Positions 1,597 through 27,690 of a stretch of DNA of 44,763 nt are shown here, piece by piece. The notes under the pieces were generated by a model that saw only the letters and a program-made list of their open reading frames with translations, made no database searches and was not told where the DNA came from. The stretch covers positions 1 through 44,763 of the forward strand of contig CAYZYW010000003.1 of the NCBI GenBank assembly GCA_964482665.1. Reading direction: 5' to 3'. Source of the DNA: Candidatus Woesearchaeota archaeon (lineage in GTDB: Archaea > Nanobdellota > Nanobdellia > Pacearchaeales > GW2011-AR1). The translations under genes and the position numbers were made by a program. The stretch's first letter is position 1. Every line of letters begins with the position of its first letter.

Positions 1597-3525
1597 ATGG
1601 TGTGGAATCTTTATGAAAATGAAAAACTTTTGAAACCTTTGGTGTTTTCAAATGGTAAATCTCAAGAGGATGTTGTGAAAGAAGTGATTAAATCTATTGA
1701 AAACGGGAAGAAAGTTATTTTTATTCAGGGAATTTGTGGTACAGGTAAATCTGCAATTGCGTTAAATATTGCTAATGAACTTGGACGAGCTTCTATTATT
1801 GTTCCAATTAAAAATTTGCAAGAACAGTATAGAAAAGATTATGCTGAAAAAAAATATTTATTAAAACCTGATAAAACAAAATTAAAAATAAATGTTACAA
1901 CTGGAAGAAAAAATCATGAATGCCCGTTCCTGAGAGATAATAAGAATGCAATTCCTAAAATTAAATCTGAAACCAATGATAAACTCAATGATATTTTTTC
2001 AGGGAAACGGGAATCCGTAAAAAGGCTTATTGAAAATGATTTATCTGCCGACAATAGAAATCTTCCATGTAAAATCGAGATCAAAGAAAAAAATTGGAAC
2101 ATTTTAAAAGGATATTTGAAGCAAAATAAAAATATTGACTACACTAAGTTGTTAGATATTAAAGATGTTCGAAGAGCTTCTGTTGCAGGAGTTTGTCCAT
2201 ACTGGTGTCCGGTTGTGAAATCTAAATATGAATTAAAATCTTTTTCAGAAAGTAAAAAAGAAAAATATACTGGATTAAGTAATGAAAAATTTGTTTATCA
2301 TAAGGGGAGACCTGGATGTGGATTTTATCAACAGTTTGATTCTTTTATTAATTCAGATGTAATTGTTTTTAATTCTCCAAAATATAAATTAGAATCTGCA
2401 ATGAATCGTAAACCGTATACTGAAATTGAAATTGTGGATGAGTGCGATGAGTTTTTGGATAGTTTTTCAAATCAGGCAAATATAAATCTTGACAGATTGC
2501 AGATGGCTTTAATCAGATGTGTTGGTAAAGACGAAGCATCCGAAGCTGTATTACATGAAATCCGAGAAATTATTTGGTACTTGAAAAAAAATATTCAAAG
2601 CTTTATCTCATCTAAAGAAATTGTTCAATTAAAACGAACTGGACTCTATGATTTGTTTCGTATTTTTTTGAAGGATCCAGATTTTTTAGAAGGTATTGAT
2701 GAAGAGAGCTATCTGTTTGATGTTTTGAATATTTCAAAGATGTTTGAAGAGTATTTGGATGAAACATATGTTACGTTTAATAAAAATGATGATAAATTAA
2801 TGGCTAGCGTTGTGACTACCAATTTAGCCAAGAAATTTAAAGAAATGGTTGATAAAAATAAGGCTATTGTTTTAATGTCTGGAACATTGCACTCTGATAA
2901 TGTTTTAAAAAATATTTTTGGAATTGAAGACCATTGTGTTATTGATGCTGAAGTTGAAAAACAAGGAAGAATTAATGTCAAACGAACCGGGTCTGAAATT
3001 GATTGTAAATATTCAAATTTTTCTTCCAAGAAATATTCTAGAAATGATTACCTAAAAGCATTGGATAAATGTGTTGGACAATCTAACAAGCCCACACTTG
3101 TTCATGTTAATGCATTTATGGATTTACCCTCTAAAGAGGAGATGATAACACTTGGTCTTAATAATTTGATTAGCCGGGAAGAATTAAGGGAAACGCAAAA
3201 TAGGGATAAAACTGGTGAATTGATTGAACAATTCAAAAAAGGCGATACTGAAGTTTTATTTTCTACAAGAGCTTCGAGGGGAATGGATTTTCCAGGAGAC
3301 GAATGTAATTCAATTGTGTTTACAAAATACCCTAACCCAAACGTTCAAGATGCTTTTTGGAAAATTCTTATGAAAACTAAACCTCAGTTTTATTGGGATT
3401 TTTATAGAGATAAAGCTAAGCGAGAACTTTGGCAAAAAATTTATAGAGGACTTAGGCATAAGAACGACAAGGTTGATGTATTAAGTCCAGACTCAAGAGT
3501 TTTGGAAGCATTTGAGAAAGAGTAA
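1597..3525 (+). CDS. Rad3/XPD/DinG-family ATP-dependent DNA helicase (putative Fe-S helicase)
   Basis: 642 aa. Walker A GICGTGKS and a DExD-like Walker B IVDECDEF. A Cys cluster lies between them (HECPF, LPCK, VCPYWCP, GCGFY), as in an Fe-S domain. The C-terminal region has STRASRGMDFPGDECNSIVFTKYP and a YRGLRHKND motif-VI-like segment. Confidence 0.6.
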   Translation: MVWNLYENEKLLKPLVFSNGKSQEDVVKEVIKSIENGKKVIFIQGICGTGKSAIALNIANELGRASIIVPIKNLQEQYRKDYAEKKYLLKPDKTKLKINVTTGRKNHECPFLRDNKNAIPKIKSETNDKLNDIFSGKRESVKRLIENDLSADNRNLPCKIEIKEKNWNILKGYLKQNKNIDYTKLLDIKDVRRASVAGVCPYWCPVVKSKYELKSFSESKKEKYTGLSNEKFVYHKGRPGCGFYQQFDSFINSDVIVFNSPKYKLESAMNRKPYTEIEIVDECDEFLDSFSNQANINLDRLQMALIRCVGKDEASEAVLHEIREIIWYLKKNIQSFISSKEIVQLKRTGLYDLFRIFLKDPDFLEGIDEESYLFDVLNISKMFEEYLDETYVTFNKNDDKLMASVVTTNLAKKFKEMVDKNKAIVLMSGTLHSDNVLKNIFGIEDHCVIDAEVEKQGRINVKRTGSEIDCKYSNFSSKKYSRNDYLKALDKCVGQSNKPTLVHVNAFMDLPSKEEMITLGLNNLISREELRETQNRDKTGELIEQFKKGDTEVLFSTRASRGMDFPGDECNSIVFTKYPNPNVQDAFWKILMKTKPQFYWDFYRDKAKRELWQKIYRGLRHKNDKVDVLSPDSRVLEAFEKE

Positions 3526-5218: not shown

Positions 5219-5578
5219 ATGACATCTAGAAATCAAATTTGGAAATGTCATATTTGTGGAAATGTAATTGAAATTTTACACGAAGGGGCGGATGCCTTGG
5301 TTTGTTGTGATAAAAAAATGATTTTAATTTCTCCGGAATCGGAGGGCGAATACGCCGAAAAACATTCGCCTATTATTGAAGGACATGTTGTAAAAATCGG
5401 TTCGGTTGCACACCCAATGGAAGAAGATCATTATATTGAATGGATTGAAGCAACCGATGGGAAAGAAATTTCTAAGATATTTTTAAAACCAGGACAAAAA
5501 CCAGAAGCTGAATTTTGCTTTAAACCAACATCTGCAAAAATGTATTGCAATAAACATGGTTTATGGAAAAATAAATAA
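5219..5578 (+). CDS. dfx: Desulfoferrodoxin (2Fe superoxide reductase)
   Basis: N-terminal desulforedoxin Cys motif (WKCHICGNVIEILHEG...VCCDKKM) followed by a neelaredoxin-type domain (EKHSPII, HPMEEDHYIEWI, CNKHGLW). ATG at 5219 is 2 nt after the rbr stop. Confidence 0.85.
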   Translation: MTSRNQIWKCHICGNVIEILHEGADALVCCDKKMILISPESEGEYAEKHSPIIEGHVVKIGSVAHPMEEDHYIEWIEATDGKEISKIFLKPGQKPEAEFCFKPTSAKMYCNKHGLWKNK

Positions 5579-5603
5579 AAAATTTTTATTCTTATATTTG
5601 TTT

Positions 5604-6694
5604 TCAGAAAATTAAAATAACTAATAATGGCACTAAAATAAAGGCTATTAAAATATAAAACGCCTTATTTCTTGAAATTTTTATTAATCTTTTTGATGTA
5701 AATTTTGTTATTTTATAAAGAAATTCTGTATTTGGCAAAAATATCAATGCTCCAATTATTCCAAACAACATATATGCAAATGCTGTTGCCAAAGCAAGGG
5801 GTTGATCAATTATTACAGAAGCTAAGAAAACATCTGTGAATGTTCCTAGGTCTGCTCCCAAAATAAATGGTATTGCCTTTCTTAAACTAATAACTCCTGT
5901 TACTGCAAGTGGAATTAAAAGTCCAATTGTTACACTTGATGAAAAAACTATTGCTGTCAAAAAAACTCCTAAAAAATAAACTTTAAATTTTGAATCAAAA
6001 TGTTTGTTAATAAATATTCTTGATTTATCTTCTCCTCCTAAAACATTGATCATTGATTTACCTATATATTTTAAAGTAAAAATTAAAATAGAAAAACCTA
6101 AAATCAATAAAATAAATTTATTATTATATTTGAATAGAAAATTTAGAACTGGAGAAGTTAAAAGTTCAACAAAATTTGGAAGTTTTAATAAAGATAATTT
6201 TGGACCGATTGCTGTCGCTAGAAAAAATGAAACTTTAGAAAAGAGTTTGAAAAAATATTCTAAAATAAAAACTATAACAACAAGTAATGCGCTATAAATT
6301 GCGTACGATAATGCAATTTCAAATCCGTGTCTAAAATCTTTTCGTCTTTGTGCTACAATTACTAATGAAATTATCAAAGCTGTGGCAATTGTTCCCAGAG
6401 ATGCTCCTATCATGATATAAATTGCAGTTGACAGGTCAATCAAATTACTTCCTGCGAGAATGCTGCAACAACTGAACTTACCGCACCTGATGATTGTACA
6501 ATTGACGTTGTGAACCAACCTGACGCAATTGCCTTTAAGGGTGTGGCATTTTGTAAAAGAAAATCCTTTATACTTGGTGTTAAAAATAAGGATGTTTTTT
6601 TTATTAATTCAATTGAAAATAAAAAAGTGTAGATAAAAAAAATTAACTTCAACCAACTTTGGAATATTGGTTCATGGGGGAGCGAAGGTTTCAT
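5604..6694 (-). pseudogene. Na+/Pi-cotransporter family (PF02690-like) membrane protein, split by a frame change near 6460
   Basis: Two overlapping minus-strand ORFs (6694-6440 and 6518-5604). The first ends ...TTSIVQSSGAVSSVVAA and the second continues ILAGSNLIDLSTAIYIMIGASLGT. Together they rebuild the family's QSS...G..GaniGT repeat. A second repeat unit follows (GADLGTFTD). Confidence 0.6.
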
Positions 6695-23413: not shown

Positions 23414-24847
23414 ATGGACTTTAGAAAAATATTCGATTATATTCCGGAGGTGGTGAAACCTGCAGAAAAAAATGTTGATTTTAAAACTAAACTTAAATGG
23501 ACTATCATTATTTTAGTTGCATTTTTTATATTATCTAATATTTCTCTTTTTGGACTTAGTGCAAATGCCATGGAGCGATTCGAGTATCTTGCAATAATTC
23601 TTGGTACAGATTTTGGAAGCATTATTTCATTGGGTATTGGACCAATTGTAATGGCTTCAATTATTTTACAGTTACTAATGGGTTCGCAAATTATTAATAT
23701 AGATACTTCAACAGCTGAGGGTAAAAAGTTTTATCAAGGTGTTCAAAAATTATTAGTTTTGTTTTTTATTGTTTTTGAGGCCGTCGTTTATGTTATGATG
23801 CAAGGCCTTCAGGCGATGCCTGGCTTTGCCAGTCTAGTTATTTTTCAGTTAATACTTGGTGGGTTAGCAATTTTTTATATGGATAAAGTTACAACAAATT
23901 GGGGATTTGGATCAGGTGTAAGTTTATTTATTGGTGCAGGTGTAAGTTTAAGATTATTCACAAGTGCATTTCAATTTGTAACAAATCAAGGTAAAAATTG
24001 CTTATTTGATTTTAAAGGAACTCCATGTTCGGGAAAGGTTTTGGTTTTGGTTCAATCTATAATTAATAAATATCCTACTGAGTTTATTTCAGCTCTTGCG
24101 GCTATTGTGGCGACAGTTGTTATTTTTATTGTTGTTGTATGGGCTCAATCATTAAAAGTTGAAATTCCGCTTTCTTTTGGACGAATTCGTGGCTATGCTA
24201 TGAAATGGCCATTATCATTTTTTTATGCCTCTGTTATTCCCGTTATTTTAACAGCTGCACTTATGGCAAATTTTCAATTATTTGGTGGATTAATTGAAAA
24301 TGCCGCTTCTCCATGTCTTGAGGGTGCATGCTCAGGTTTTGCGAGAATCGCTTCACATTTGGGATTTTTAGGACATTTTGTTAATGGACAAGCTGTTTCA
24401 GGTTTGTCATTTTGGATGGGCTCAAGTAATTTATTAGAGCTTTTTATTAGAGGTGGATTTATGTGGAAATATGCATTACAGGGTTTGACTCATATATTTT
24501 TCTTTATGTTGTTCTCAACTTTGTTTGCTGTGTTTTGGGTTAAGACGGCTGGAATGGATTCAAAGTCTCAGGCTCAAAAAATTGCAAGTTCAGGTTTGCA
24601 GGTTTCAGGGTTTAGACAGGATATTCGAATTTTAGAAAGTATACTTGATAGATATATTATGCCATTAACCGTTATGGGTGGCTTAGCGATTGGTTTACTA
24701 GCTTCATTAACAGATCTTTTAGGAGCATTAGTTTCAGGAACAGCAATCTTATTGGTAATTATGATTATGTTCCAGTTTTATCAGAACATTGCACAAAAAC
24801 ATATGACAGATATGAATCCAGCAATGAGAAAGTTTATGGGTGGATAG
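23414..24847 (+). CDS. secY: Preprotein translocase subunit SecY
   Basis: 477 aa, about 10 TM segments. IISLGIGPIVMASIILQLL (TM2 plug region). Sits downstream of L15. A TATA-like TTATAAAT lies at 23386-23393. Confidence 0.92.
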   Translation: MDFRKIFDYIPEVVKPAEKNVDFKTKLKWTIIILVAFFILSNISLFGLSANAMERFEYLAIILGTDFGSIISLGIGPIVMASIILQLLMGSQIINIDTSTAEGKKFYQGVQKLLVLFFIVFEAVVYVMMQGLQAMPGFASLVIFQLILGGLAIFYMDKVTTNWGFGSGVSLFIGAGVSLRLFTSAFQFVTNQGKNCLFDFKGTPCSGKVLVLVQSIINKYPTEFISALAAIVATVVIFIVVVWAQSLKVEIPLSFGRIRGYAMKWPLSFFYASVIPVILTAALMANFQLFGGLIENAASPCLEGACSGFARIASHLGFLGHFVNGQAVSGLSFWMGSSNLLELFIRGGFMWKYALQGLTHIFFFMLFSTLFAVFWVKTAGMDSKSQAQKIASSGLQVSGFRQDIRILESILDRYIMPLTVMGGLAIGLLASLTDLLGALVSGTAILLVIMIMFQFYQNIAQKHMTDMNPAMRKFMGG

Positions 24848-25930
24848 ATTTGAGAAGTTTTTGAATTGACATGAAATTGTTTCCAAGATTTACATAAGCA
24901 ATCCATCCTTGTAATATTTCTTTAAATTTTTCTTTAGATATCTTACCCTTATTAAATAATTCAATCTTTTTCCTAATGTTTCGTAAATTTCTTTTTCTCA
25001 ATAACCTTGAATAATAAAAATTTCTAAATCCGACAAAATCAACTCCTCGAGATAAATTCAATATCTTAGATTTGTCTGGATGAAGTTCAAGCCTTAATTT
25101 TTCTTTTAAAAAAATTTCAACTTGTTTTCTCCAAGTCTTAAGTTGTTTTTTTGAAGGATGTAATAAAACGAAATCATCAACATAGCGAATATAATATTTT
25201 GCTCTTAATTTATTTTTTATAAAATAATCTAATTCATTAAGATATATGTTTGCAAAAAATTGTGAAGTTAAATTTCCTAAAGGTAATCCTTTATTGTTAT
25301 CAAATCCCTGCTTACTTTTCAGGTTCGAGAGAGAGAGAGAGAGAGAGAGAGAGACGAATTACAAATATTCCCTATCGAGGATTTATTGTATCTCTCATTT
25401 TTTATTATAATTTTAATTAACTGTAACGTTTCTTGACACCTTATTTTTCTTTGTAACATCCTTAATAGAATTTTGTGGTCTATGTTTCGGAAATAATGTT
25501 TTACATCTGCCCTGAAACAATGCCCCGAAGAATGTAAATTCTTCGTAACTTTTAATTTGAATTTCTTAAGTCTTTGTAGTGCAAATAATGTTCCTTTGTG
25601 TTTTCTATTTGCACAATTATCACAAATAAATGTTTTATCAAAAATAGGTTCAATTATGTTACACAAGGCGTGATGAATAATTCTATCTCTAAAATCTGCT
25701 TTGGAAATTTTACGAGTCTTTGGGTCTCGTAAAATAAAAATTATCAAAGGCTTTGGTTTGTATGTTTGTTTTAATAATTCTTTCTGTAATTTGAAAAGAT
25801 TTTTTCGCGTATTTTTTTCAAATTCGATAACGTAGTTCTTTTTCGTTTTTCCTTTTCTTGCTTTAATCCAAGCTTTCGCTAAGTTATTCATTGCACATAT
25901 TTTAGGATAAAGATTTTTATGGGTTTTCAT
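24834..25930 (-). CDS. DGR reverse transcriptase, reading frame interrupted at a (TC)14 repeat
   Basis: N-terminal ORF 25930-25319 holds RT motifs 0-3 (NLAKAWIKARKGK, PKPLIIFILRDPKTRKISKADFRDRIIHHAL, CANRKHKGTLFAL, FRADVKHYFRNIDH). My translation of 25322-24834 in the -1 frame gives KGLPLGNLTSQFFANIYLNELD ([ILV]GxxxSQ, DGR-type motif 4), YIRYVDDFVLL (YxDD) and a thumb segment (GVDFVGFRN...LQGWIAYVN). The 3' end overlaps the secY stop by 14 nt. Confidence 0.8.
25327..25354. repeat. (GA)14 / (TC)14 dinucleotide microsatellite inside the RT gene
   Basis: Counted directly: 28 nt of perfect GA repeat on the plus strand. It encodes (SL)n in the RT frame and causes the frame break. Confidence 0.95.
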
Positions 25931-25954
25931 TTCAATGCTGTCCTGAAGATGGGC

Positions 25955-26036
25955 TATTCCAAGATTCGCGTTCCTATTGGAAGGATTCCTGTCACAATTC
26001 AGGTTCGCCCTACTCGAGTCAGCATTGAACCTCGCG
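25955..26036 (-). repeat. DGR template repeat (TR)
   Basis: 82 bp, non-coding, ending 24 nt upstream of the RT ATG. 70/82 identical to 26327-26408. All differences are at plus-strand T (minus-strand A) of this copy. Confidence 0.85.
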
Positions 26037-26279
26037 AATCAGATAGCCAATTTACCAATTCATAACGCAAAAGCGTTAACACCACAACTTCAATATTCAC
26101 CATAAGTTACTAATTGTTGTTGTTGAATTTAATGACTTGAAATAAATCTTAACAACGTGCTAGTAAATTGACGTGTAGTCCTTGTTTTATATTTCTTGTT
26201 CATGGAAATATAAAATTTCTCCAGGACAATGAATCAAATAAAAAATTGTTTAAAAATTTTGCGATGTCACTTCGCGACA

Positions 26280-26299
26280 AAAAAACAAATTTGTTTTTT
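26280..26299. repeat. Perfect 20-bp palindrome AAAAAACAAA|TTTGTTTTTT just 3' of the target-gene stop
   Basis: Read directly from the sequence. Flanked by TCGCGA at 26271-26276 and 26307-26312. It lies 4 nt downstream (minus sense) of the stop at 26303-26305. Confidence 0.8.
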
Positions 26300-26302
26300 A
26301 GA

Positions 26303-27180
26303 TTATTCGCGAACAATATAATCCCTTACCCCAAGATCCGCGTTCCTACCGGAAGGATACCAGTCACAACCCAGGTCCGCCCTACTCGAGTCAGCATCGA
26401 ACCACGCGCCACGTCCTGCTATTGGCGCCCAATAGTATAAATCTCCTTCTAGATCTTCTTTGTTCAGATTGTTGTTTGGAAACCCCTGTTCTGTTGGTGT
26501 ATCTATCCAGCTTTTTAATGAGATTCCCGGAGCTTTATTTTGTATTAATGTATTTTTTGTAATTTTTCTCTGCTTCCTGAAATCAGATTATCTTCAGAAT
26601 CAAGTTTAAAATCTCTTAAAACATATAAACCATCTTCTCTTTGCTCATAAAAATCTTCAGACCATTCAGCTCTCCAAGGAGATTTTACTCCGACAACATC
26701 AGAATAAATTGCTTCTATTTCTTTTATGTCCATTTTATGTCCTTGAGAATTATAAACTGATTCTCCGTTTAATCCACTATGGAGATATTTTAGAAATTTA
26801 TTCATCAAATTAACAAGTGGTGTTTTTCTTCCTCTTACGGAATTTAACTTTAAAGCGGTGTCTCGATTTATATTCCCAATAAAATATCTTTTCATTGAAT
26901 CACTTGAAGTATTCATAAAAGATTCTTCAAGACGTTTTCTTGCTTCTCTAATTCCATAATCTTTTTCAGAAACTCTTGCTGAATTAATATCCAAATCACC
27001 ATAACCTTGTGGTGTAATTTCTCCTGGCATAAAAATATATCCTTCTAAATCTTTTGGCTCTGTTGGAGTTTCAATTATTTGTTTAGATAAAATTGGGTTT
27101 GTTGGTGTTTCAATTACTTTGTAAACTTCTGGATTTAACATTCCTAAAGTTTGTTCGCTTACTTCGATTATCGGTGTCAT
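26303..27180 (-). CDS. DGR target protein, C-type-lectin/FGE-sulfatase-like fold with C-terminal VR; frame change between 26548 and 26587
   Basis: The 211-aa ORF (27180-26545) carries SPWRAEWSEDFY, like the GNVWEW..D.Y motif of FGE/CLec domains. The -1 frame is open from 26587 to the stop at 26303. It reads ...KSWIDTPTEQGFPNNNLNKEDLEGDLYYWAPIAGRGAWFDADSSRADLGCDWYPSGRNADLGVRDYIVRE* and contains the VR. It has no ATG of its own. Confidence 0.7.
26327..26408 (-). repeat. DGR variable repeat (VR)
   Basis: The 82-bp counterpart of the TR, in frame within the last ~35 codons of the target ORF. TR AAY/AGG codons appear here as GAT, GAC, GGT, TAT and TGG. Confidence 0.85.
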
Positions 27181-27291
27181 AGCTTATCTAGAAAAAAGTT
27201 CTTTATAAAACTTTCTATACTGTTACTTTTAAAGAAAGGCTACAGAACTAATAAAGTCAAAGTTTAAAAAAGATTTTTCATTATCTTATTT

Positions 27292-27690
27292 ATGAGTTTA
27301 GAAAGTTTAATGATCACATATCCGAAATTAAGTATTTCAATTGTTGCTCTTGCTGTTACTTTTGTTATGACATTGGTTACGAAAAAATTTACAGATCAAA
27401 AAAGACTAAAAGAATTAAAAAAAATTCAGAAAGCATGTCAGATTAAAATAAAAGATCATAAAGGTGATATGAAAAAACAAGGCGAGATTCAGAAAGAAAT
27501 GATGGCGTGTTCGATGGAAATGATGAAACATTCATTCAAACCTTTATTTATTACAATGATTCCTATCCTTTTCTTGTTCGCATGGATTAGAGGTGTTTAT
27601 ACCGAAGTTTTAACAAGTTGGATATGGTGGTATCTTGGTGCTGCAATTGCTTCAAGTATTGTTTTAAGAAAAGCTTTAGATGTTGCATAG
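27292..27690 (+). CDS. DUF106 family membrane protein (archaeal YidC/Oxa1/EMC3-like insertase)
   Basis: 132 aa. TM helix, then a K-rich coiled segment (KRLKELKKIQKACQ...MKKQGEIQKEMM), then two TM helices. This is the usual gene class downstream of secY-adk in archaea. Confidence 0.55.
   Translation: MSLESLMITYPKLSISIVALAVTFVMTLVTKKFTDQKRLKELKKIQKACQIKIKDHKGDMKKQGEIQKEMMACSMEMMKHSFKPLFITMIPILFLFAWIRGVYTEVLTSWIWWYLGAAIASSIVLRKALDVA

Follow-up and report, generated by a model that had tools for sequence, protein, structure and literature searches.

Organization of the locus

We have analysed a window of 44,763 nucleotides, which is the whole stretch taken from contig CAYZYW010000003.1 of a Candidatus Woesearchaeota archaeon (assembly GCA_964482665.1), and describe here the diversity-generating retroelement (DGR) on its minus strand. 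The locus is a chromosomal DGR of a DPANN lineage (Woese-/Pacearchaeota-type Nanoarchaeota), in which a target gene with a variable repeat (VR) is followed after 290 nt by the template repeat (TR) and, 24 nt further on, by the ATG (25930) of a reverse transcriptase (RT) gene (Table 1). The original prediction, made from the sequence alone, had placed TR, VR, target stop, both gaps and the RT start at these same positions, all of which hold on the minus strand; what it missed is that the spacer holds a structured RNA and that both frame breaks lie on repeats. We consider it probable that this is an archaeal DGR of known type in which a tract prone to slippage inside the RT gene serves as a stochastic ON/OFF switch, with the window carrying an OFF allele one repeat unit away from ON.

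Table 1. Features of the DGR cassette and its immediate neighbours, in positions of the window
Feature	Position	Strand	Remarks
Target gene	26303..27180	-	~292 codons once repaired; N-terminal open reading frame (ORF) 27180-26545 (211 aa); VR frame runs to stop 26305-26303
VR	26327..26408	-	last ~28-35 codons of target; GGGGT end, like an initiation of mutagenic homing (IMH) site
Composite hairpin	26271..26313	-	starts 14 nt past VR end
RT-16 RNA (Rfam RF03019)	26038..26206	-	occupies VR-TR gap, ends 2 nt before TR
TR	25955..26036	-	24 adenines, mostly AAY codons
TR-RT spacer	25931..25954	-	24 nt; begins AATAGCC (IMH*-side), ends CAGCATTGAA
DGR RT gene	24834..25930	-	N-half ORF 25930-25319 (203 aa, motifs 1-3); C-half frame with GNLTSQ, YVDD and the thumb runs to stop 24836-24834
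(TC)14 microsatellite	25327..25354	- (coding strand; (GA)14 on +)	RT frame-break site, loop between motifs 3 and 4
A6 homopolymer	26553..26558	-	target frame-break site
secY	23414..24847	+	convergent with RT, 14-nt overlap of RT stop
EMC3/TMCO1-like (DUF106) membrane protein gene	27292..27690	+	divergent from target

Identification of the element as a DGR

The repeat pair bears the adenine-specific signature that had been predicted. Over 82 nt, TR and VR differ at 12 positions, all 12 at adenines of the TR and none at any other base; with 24 adenines in the TR, the chance that 12 random positions would all fall on A is 3e-8. An ordinary duplication with mismatches at all four bases, which had been named beforehand as the alternative, does not describe such a pattern. 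Codon positions 1 or 2 hold 22 of the 24 adenines, a pattern known from classic DGR templates. The two repeats are also placed as in a DGR: the VR is at the 3' end of a coding target and ends 21 nt before its stop, and the TR is non-coding, adjoins the RT gene and has stops downstream in the VR frame. The GGGGT end of the VR stands against GGAAT(A/G)G at the end of the TR, a difference conserved in the related loci inspected. A search of the whole window with the TR returned this single VR and no further copies.

Once repaired, the RT matches Pfam RVT_1 and contains LPLGNLTSQFFANIYL, GNLTSQ (25277-25260) and YVDD (25184-25173); both the motif-4 signature [ILV]GxxxSQ, here LGNLTSQ, and the YVDD box expected from the earlier reading are therefore present, and GNLTSQFFA is invariant in 32 RT homologues. 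The best sequence match in the PDB is the Bordetella phage DGR RT (bRT; 8ub7, E 1e-44, 156 bits), against E 3e-17 (66 bits) for the best group II intron RT, so that the RT is not nearest to group II or retron enzymes, the outcome that would have spoken against a DGR. The top five Foldseek matches of its AlphaFold model (pLDDT 73.7) are all RTs of DGR ribonucleoproteins (E 2e-17, TM 0.68/0.74), with group II RTs ranking below them. With adenine-only mismatches and the Bordetella enzyme as best match in sequence and structure, the DGR call stands.

We have dropped the view of a group II intron, retron or defence RT accompanied by an ordinary duplication, and give it a negligible probability. The top-scoring NCBIfam model is a group II RT/maturase, but it reaches 135 bits against a 300-bit cutoff in a library without a DGR model, and neither the group II nor the retron models of NCBIfam come near their cutoffs for the window RT. 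An Rfam scan of 24500-27500 (E<=5) gave RT-16 and one chance match with no intron domain or retron msr/msd RNA. The TR/VR mismatches are confined to adenines, no other enzyme matches nearly as well as bRT, and RT-16, TR and RT keep a fixed arrangement across relatives.

Frame breaks in the RT and target genes

Both protein genes of the cassette are broken, as originally noted, and the breaks exist in three assemblies; they are probably not random decay, and both fall on simple repeats. In the RT gene, loss of 2 nt (one TC unit) from (TC)14 joins the two halves, and this tract is the sole dinucleotide repeat of at least six units in the 44.8-kb window (TRF). It lies within an insertion of about 30 residues relative to bRT and most homologues, between motifs 3 and 4, of which residues 183-211 are modelled as disordered (pLDDT <50). 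A split RT made as two proteins was considered for the window and rejected, the first start codon in the frame of the C-half being downstream of both motif 4 and YVDD.

The first ORF of the target ends in ...KLQKIH* and the VR frame continues from the same point. One additional nucleotide at 26558-26553, giving A7 instead of A6, restores ...LQKNTLIQNKAPGISL as in the homologues; the closest homologue, L001 (related loci and contigs are referred to by L numbers), and seven proteins from the database have an unbroken ...L(x)KNTLM(x)DKTPGISL... at this site, where homologues have A5-A6 in frame.

The assemblies JGI 3300025669, ENA ERZ27315536 and Logan SRR5581654 are 100% identical over the locus, including the VR. 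Hence the breaks do not come from one assembler, though the read sets may overlap. The Logan contig (L083, SRR5581654_12080) ends at window position 25325, 2 nt past (TC)14; this end could reflect either a branch in the assembly graph, that is length heterogeneity, or low coverage of the repeat.

Simple sequence repeats in the RT genes of the clade

Repeats at the site of the RT break are widespread in the clade. About a quarter of the 120 closest full-length RTs contain RERERE in exactly the loop between motifs 3 and 4, at lengths that vary between close relatives, and at the DNA level this peptide is a (GA)n tract, for instance (GA)13 in L002. In metagenome contigs, a search for (GA)7 with the codons of PLGNLTSQFFA within 10-40 nt behind it yielded 120 loci from many projects; the same pattern of repeat and motif has no match in viral contigs. 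The reading frame was counted in the 106 loci in which both the DIKHYF and the GNLTSQ motif could be placed. Among these RT genes with (GA)>=7, 14 are in frame, 46 at +1 and 46 at +2, an in-frame share that departs from one third with a binomial p=2e-6. Taking one locus per lineage leaves 92, with 10 in frame, 40 at +1 and 42 at +2. The RTs of relatives without a long repeat are in frame in 69 of 69 cases, in a set picked by tblastn score, which favours intact genes.

The out-of-frame genes are otherwise well preserved. The N-half is open over at least 135 codons in 85 of 87 loci and the C-half over at least 140 codons in 90 of 92, and the TR/VR mismatches are essentially adenine-only in 31 of 39 out-of-frame loci, which argues against long-dead elements. 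A protein-database search with the RT N-half, whose candidate step probably favours proteins of similar length and which gives no frequency estimate, returned almost exclusively ORFs consisting of the N-half only. Ninety-seven of them stop before motif 4: 55 end after RERE, four after SLSL (the window's own included) and many after GGGG, with tails such as KECLLEI* that are the out-of-frame reading of KGMPLGN.

Changes in repeat number were seen directly between near-identical contigs: alleles differ in unit number in 6 of 10 clusters, and three ON/OFF pairs were seen. For instance, L180 (OFF) and L002 (ON) differ over 7051 nt by one GA unit, eight substitutions in the VR and one just after it. 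A GA unit is the sole difference between L180 and L190 over 2518 nt, as are three GA units between L100 and L155 over 9440 nt. In the 2303-nt alignment of L152 (ON) and L098 (OFF), the VR-RT region differs at 16 VR positions and by one GA unit, the other 36 substitutions all lying further downstream. Between identical flanks, the VRs of L180/L002 and of L152/L098 differ at variable positions, which is indirect evidence, from relatives, for ongoing mutagenic retrohoming. The genomes of these relatives thus change fastest at two sites, the repeat and the VR. L180/L002 and L100/L155 are contigs of different assemblies, in which DGR activity and slippage appear on the same short timescale.

The repeats are of more than one kind. 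A 100-kb Pacearchaeota metagenome-assembled genome (MAG) contig, L204, has ATTCG(TC)14, the same as in the window, and its RT is out of frame. L205 has G11 (1713-1723) in the motif 3-4 loop, and L206 and L207 have G9 (3216-3224 and 933-941) between motifs 5 and 6, all three with RTs out of frame and in DPANN genomes of 30% GC. In 1.28 Mb of fetched DPANN DNA, all dinucleotide repeats of at least six units are in RT genes. Three kinds of repeat, on either strand, in a dispensable loop and in genomes of 30% GC point to a role in mutability at the DNA level and not to a function of the peptide or the RNA.

Three further observations concern these tracts. A Micrarchaeota DGR RT (L038, 46% identity) has (AG)10 at 5407-5426, about 50-70 nt upstream of the HYF motif and hence at another spot of the RT than the motif 3-4 loop. 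Two GTDB assemblies have runs of N exactly in that loop (L005 at ~1092-1330, L048 at ~5418-5590), possibly from trouble in assembly or scaffolding there; past its run, L005 continues with a second RT-like copy. In both (TC)14 lineages, (GA)3-4 is found some 35-45 nt upstream of (TC)n (window 25390-25400; L204 1140-1190). The two could pair as a hairpin, and (TC)n may have arisen by inverted duplication of the (GA)n common in relatives.

RT-16 RNA and the absence of an accessory gene

The cassette has no ORF of the size of Avd, as had been stated: the largest minus-strand ORFs between the target stop and the TR have 24, 34 and 38 aa, and no Avd-type Pfam family was found among the 20 window ORFs scanned. 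This minimal layout was originally taken to be unusual, whereas it is the rule in the Woese/Pacearchaeota RT clade. Among 80 related RT loci drawn from GTDB (Woese-, Pace- and Nanoarchaeota MAGs with 43-63% RT identity, including SCGC AAA011-G17), about 42 have an adenine-biased TR/VR pair in the same arrangement without an accessory ORF, namely a target of ~240-310 aa, a VR-TR interval of 210-528 nt (median 291), the TR, ~25-35 nt and the RT. Over 43 loci the longest stop-free stretch in the VR-TR interval has a median of 56 aa, target tails counted in. More generally, avd is found in 74% of DGRs, leaving 26% without it (PMC5758913), and 'Architecture A', with no accessory gene, accounts for 29% of 372 DGRs (Wu et al. 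2018, PMC5758913). By itself a compact DGR without Avd is ordinary; the interesting part is the repeat switch.

The 290-bp spacer has the length first given for it and indeed lacks a large ORF, but it is not empty. It contains a full-length RT-16 RNA, matched over positions 1-158 of the 158 of the model with 93.3 bits (gathering score 50; E 6e-15). Full-length RT-16 was found with Rfam in 20 of 20 relatives tested (68-113 bits), again including SCGC AAA011-G17, and it ends within ~3 nt of the TR start in every relative compared against a mapped TR. Our survey combined an nhmmer profile with Rfam, the MAFFT alignment being too ragged for a covariance model of our own. By nhmmer, RT-16 is present in 69 of 76 repeat-bearing metagenomic loci and in 39 of the 64 GTDB loci with enough upstream sequence; 118 of 120 matches share the strand of the RT and keep a nearly constant distance from it.

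RT-16 was published among 19 RT-associated motifs of unknown role, for which a link to retrons or DGRs was speculated (Weinberg et al. 2017, PMC5737381); among them only RT-10, the Bordetella TR-RT spacer, was linked to a DGR (PMC5737381). The RNA described here agrees with the published motif in its full-length match, its location on the RT strand and its position upstream of the RT gene. What differs is its position directly 5' of a DGR template, both in the window and in 20 relatives, and from this arrangement RT-16 is best read as a putative 5' leader of the template RNA in the Avd-less clade.

The 3' end of RT-16 in the window (GGCTAT, 26043-26048) is complementary to ATAGCC 3' of the TR (25952-25957). 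In the relatives GGCUAU is near-invariant and its partner, AUAGCC, AUAGUC or AUAGUU, directly follows the TR in L002, L004, L009, L015 and others; the resulting helix could clamp the template. A second pairing, a perfect 10-bp complementarity between TTCAATGCTG in the TR (26029-26020) and CAGCATTGAA before the ATG (25940-25931), is equalled in no more than 2% of shuffled versions of the window spacer. With it the TR would form a closed loop and the region around the start codon would be masked, which is suggestive only. As a conserved feature of these elements this helix was rejected: it is specific to the window and not kept in 42 related loci.

A probable phase-variable RT and its alternatives

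How could such an element work? A single transcript with RT-16 and the TR, and possibly the 5' part of the RT mRNA, would be bound by the RT. The TR would be copied into cDNA with random bases opposite its adenines, and this cDNA would replace the VR. RT-16 would serve as an RNA scaffold in RT binding, priming or positioning, a role that Avd and the RT-10/Sp RNA have in the Bordetella phage, which would account for the lack of a gene for an accessory protein. The population that was sequenced would have the element genetically OFF, the RT being out of frame by one repeat unit and the target by one base. By slippage, the tract, whether (GA)n, (TC)n or poly-G, would change its length and toggle the RT frame, which would amount to a stochastic, heritable and reversible phase variation of the mutator itself. 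In the window organism the RT switch is presumably reversible, and the break in the A-run of the target may be so as well. For DPANN DGRs at large, we see about an even chance that simple sequence repeats (SSRs) have been recruited repeatedly into a dispensable RT loop as a heritable ON/OFF switch that is mostly OFF, with RT-16 replacing Avd and Sp.

Several points weigh against this view. For the window there is no length variation of (TC)14 or of the A-run, and the three agreeing assemblies may share reads. L204 belongs to another lineage and carries exactly 14 units as well, an odd coincidence for a tract that changes quickly. The hairpin behind the VR is atypical: in relatives a short GC hairpin with a GAA-type loop (GCC-GAA-GGC) follows a few nucleotides after the VR, whereas that of the window is longer and composite, with TTCGCGA...TCGCGAA around an A/T stem (a 96-nt stretch at -12.8 kcal/mol, z -2.3). 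A third gene of the window is also split, a Na/Pi cotransporter (5604-6694, minus strand) with ORFs of 84 and 304 aa in different frames and a break near 6440-6518, where ...VVAAFSQEVI* meets ...SILAGSNLIDLS... without any homopolymer or repeat. Together with the break in the target, this split off any repeat argues for some true decay or consensus error. The in-frame alleles of the clade, at 13%, are below the one third of neutral slippage, which calls for additional selection or another mechanism. Regarding RT-16, its function in RT binding, priming, positioning or termination is something that we infer, and the changes in GGCUAU/AUAGCC are mostly G-U compatible with few compensatory ones, amounting to little true covariation.

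A serious rival for the window locus in particular is a decaying DGR, once active, in which ordinary frameshifts that chanced to fall on repeats have permanently inactivated both genes and left a pseudogenised remnant. We regard this as unlikely. It would account for two independent breaks within one 2.3-kb cassette, for the third split gene off any repeat and for the atypical hairpin, and it accords with the constancy of the number 14 in the window and in L204; moreover, over half of the candidate DGRs in a published survey were discarded as inactivated (PMC5758913). On the other hand, the RT halves (203 and ~160 codons) and both parts of the target are otherwise open in a genome of 30% GC, no TR/VR mismatch lies outside adenines, and RT-16 still scores 93 bits. 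The out-of-frame RTs of the clade likewise keep their halves (85/87 and 90/92) and their clean TR/VR pairs (31/39), and differ from their in-frame twins by repeat units only.

The switch as we propose it has to be set, for the excess of OFF alleles, against recoding as the main rival mechanism. Here the out-of-frame state would itself be functional, with a little full-length RT made through transcriptional slippage or ribosomal frameshifting, in a gag-pol-like manner that keeps RT levels low; we find this somewhat less probable still than decay. The out-of-frame share of 87%, where 67% is expected, speaks in its favour, as do tracts of a kind prone to polymerase slippage (G9, G11, long GA/TC) and, in the window, the lack of a start codon for separate translation of the C-half. 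Yet +1 and +2 are equally common (46 vs 46), which fits no single directional signal, and changes of unit number at the DNA level, including ON/OFF pairs, are seen directly between near-identical contigs. Neither a conserved slippery heptamer nor a stimulatory structure downstream came to light, although no search aimed at them was made. The excess itself suggests either selection against constitutive RT activity or low-level expression via transcriptional or translational slippage.

Finally, the breaks could be sequencing or assembly errors in low-complexity sequence, the genes being intact in reality. Both do fall on repeats, where indel errors concentrate, and the Logan contig stops 2 nt beyond (TC)14. 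We nevertheless judge such an artefact very improbable, for the three assemblies come from different pipelines and agree base for base over 3.3-7.7 kb, the repeat lengths of relatives recur in their replicate contigs, and split N-half ORFs number in the hundreds across many projects. A general excess of homopolymer errors in the assembly was ruled out by the ribosomal-protein operon, which is rich in A-runs and whose ORFs abut unbroken, in a window with ~350 A/T runs of at least six.

Relation to known systems

Already published are DGRs as a class, their occurrence in DPANN archaea, architectures without Avd and the RT-16 motif, the first two of which had been acknowledged as known from the outset. 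The Nanoarchaeota DGR of Paul et al. 2015 (PMC4372165) belongs to the same RT clade, and the contig of SCGC AAA011-G17 (L079) has an RT of 44% identity. The window shares with Nanoarchaeota/DPANN DGRs the order target-TR-RT, orphan targets of ~250-300 aa, a predicted post-VR hairpin and the chromosomal location. Small basic ORFs between target and RT were proposed there as possible Avd analogues (PMC4372165), whereas this interval is occupied in the window by RT-16 and its ORFs have 24-38 aa.

With the BPP-1 DGR of the Bordetella phage (mtd-avd-TR-brt; 8ub7-8ubf), the element shares adenine-specific transfer from TR to VR, RT homology over the full length, a VR at the 3' end of the target and VR and TR that differ at ends of the IMH/IMH* type. 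It differs from BPP-1 in lacking Avd, in having its RNA 5' of the TR (RT-16) where the Sp of BPP-1 is 3' of it (Rfam RT-10, PMC5737381), in a TR-RT gap of 24 nt, in the repeat-encoded insertion of ~30 residues between motifs 3 and 4 of the RT, and in its host, which is cellular and archaeal. The accessory-free DGRs of the published survey (PMC5758913) similarly consist of a TR-RT core without an avd, HRDC, MSL or CH1 gene, but their Lineage 3, which is without avd, is centred on Bacteroides.

The repeat tract is reminiscent of the SSR contingency loci of Haemophilus, Neisseria and Campylobacter, with which it has in common an intragenic perfect repeat, toggling of the frame, an intact flanking ORF, unit-number polymorphism between otherwise identical alleles (in relatives) and the confinement of repeats to particular genes. 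It differs from these loci in the archaeal host, in the repeat types (GA)n/(TC)n, in the gene controlled, which is a mutator enzyme and not a surface structure or a methylase, and in being known here from sequences and not from switching in clonal cultures. SSR phase variation is, to our knowledge, rarely documented in archaea.

Three elements of this work appear to be new: the placing of RT-16 at the 5' edge of a DGR template, the hypermutable tracts within DGR RT genes, whose alleles are mostly out of frame, and the idea of a phase-variable diversity generator. Neither RT-16 next to a TR nor repeats in the RT are found in PMC4372165, PMC5758913 or PMC5737381, and a full-text literature search of incomplete coverage gave no report of repeats in DGR RTs (phase variation, SSR) or of RT-16 tied to a DGR.

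These observations bear on two questions, the regulation of DGR activity and the working of Avd-less DGRs. RT-16, until now an orphan Rfam RNA, would gain a genomic role in a large archaeal DGR clade, and the RT with its RT-16-TR RNA would make a minimal two-component system usable for in vitro reconstitution or engineering. If true, a phase-variable hypermutator would represent bet-hedging on evolvability in tiny genomes with few regulators. For surveys there is a warning: filters that remove RTs with a 'premature stop', which took out over half of the candidates (PMC5758913), would miss such elements or misclassify them as dead.

Target gene and genomic setting

The target has no Pfam, NCBIfam or PDB match by sequence. 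Its homologue L001 (287 aa) is 36% identical (E 1e-42), and the family comprises eight proteins among 5.8 billion. An AlphaFold2 model from this shallow alignment of eight sequences (pLDDT 79.5) has FGE/EgtB proteins as all of its top 31 Foldseek matches, which are weak (E 0.03-0.5, TM 0.3-0.39); the predicted structure is consistent with, but no proof of, the C-type-lectin-like fold of DGR variable proteins.

The setting in the ribosomal/secY region, considered unusual in the original prediction, is not so: DGRs stand beside secY or EMC3 in at least seven other lineages. The secY gene adjoins related DGR RTs in L012, L047, L097, L120, L130 and L172, with SecY proteins 53-89% identical to that of the window; L012 has RT and secY in convergent orientation, as here, and in L204 the DGR is beside EMC3-secY. 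The secY/EMC3 neighbourhood thus appears to be a recurrent home of these cassettes and not the site of a one-off insertion.

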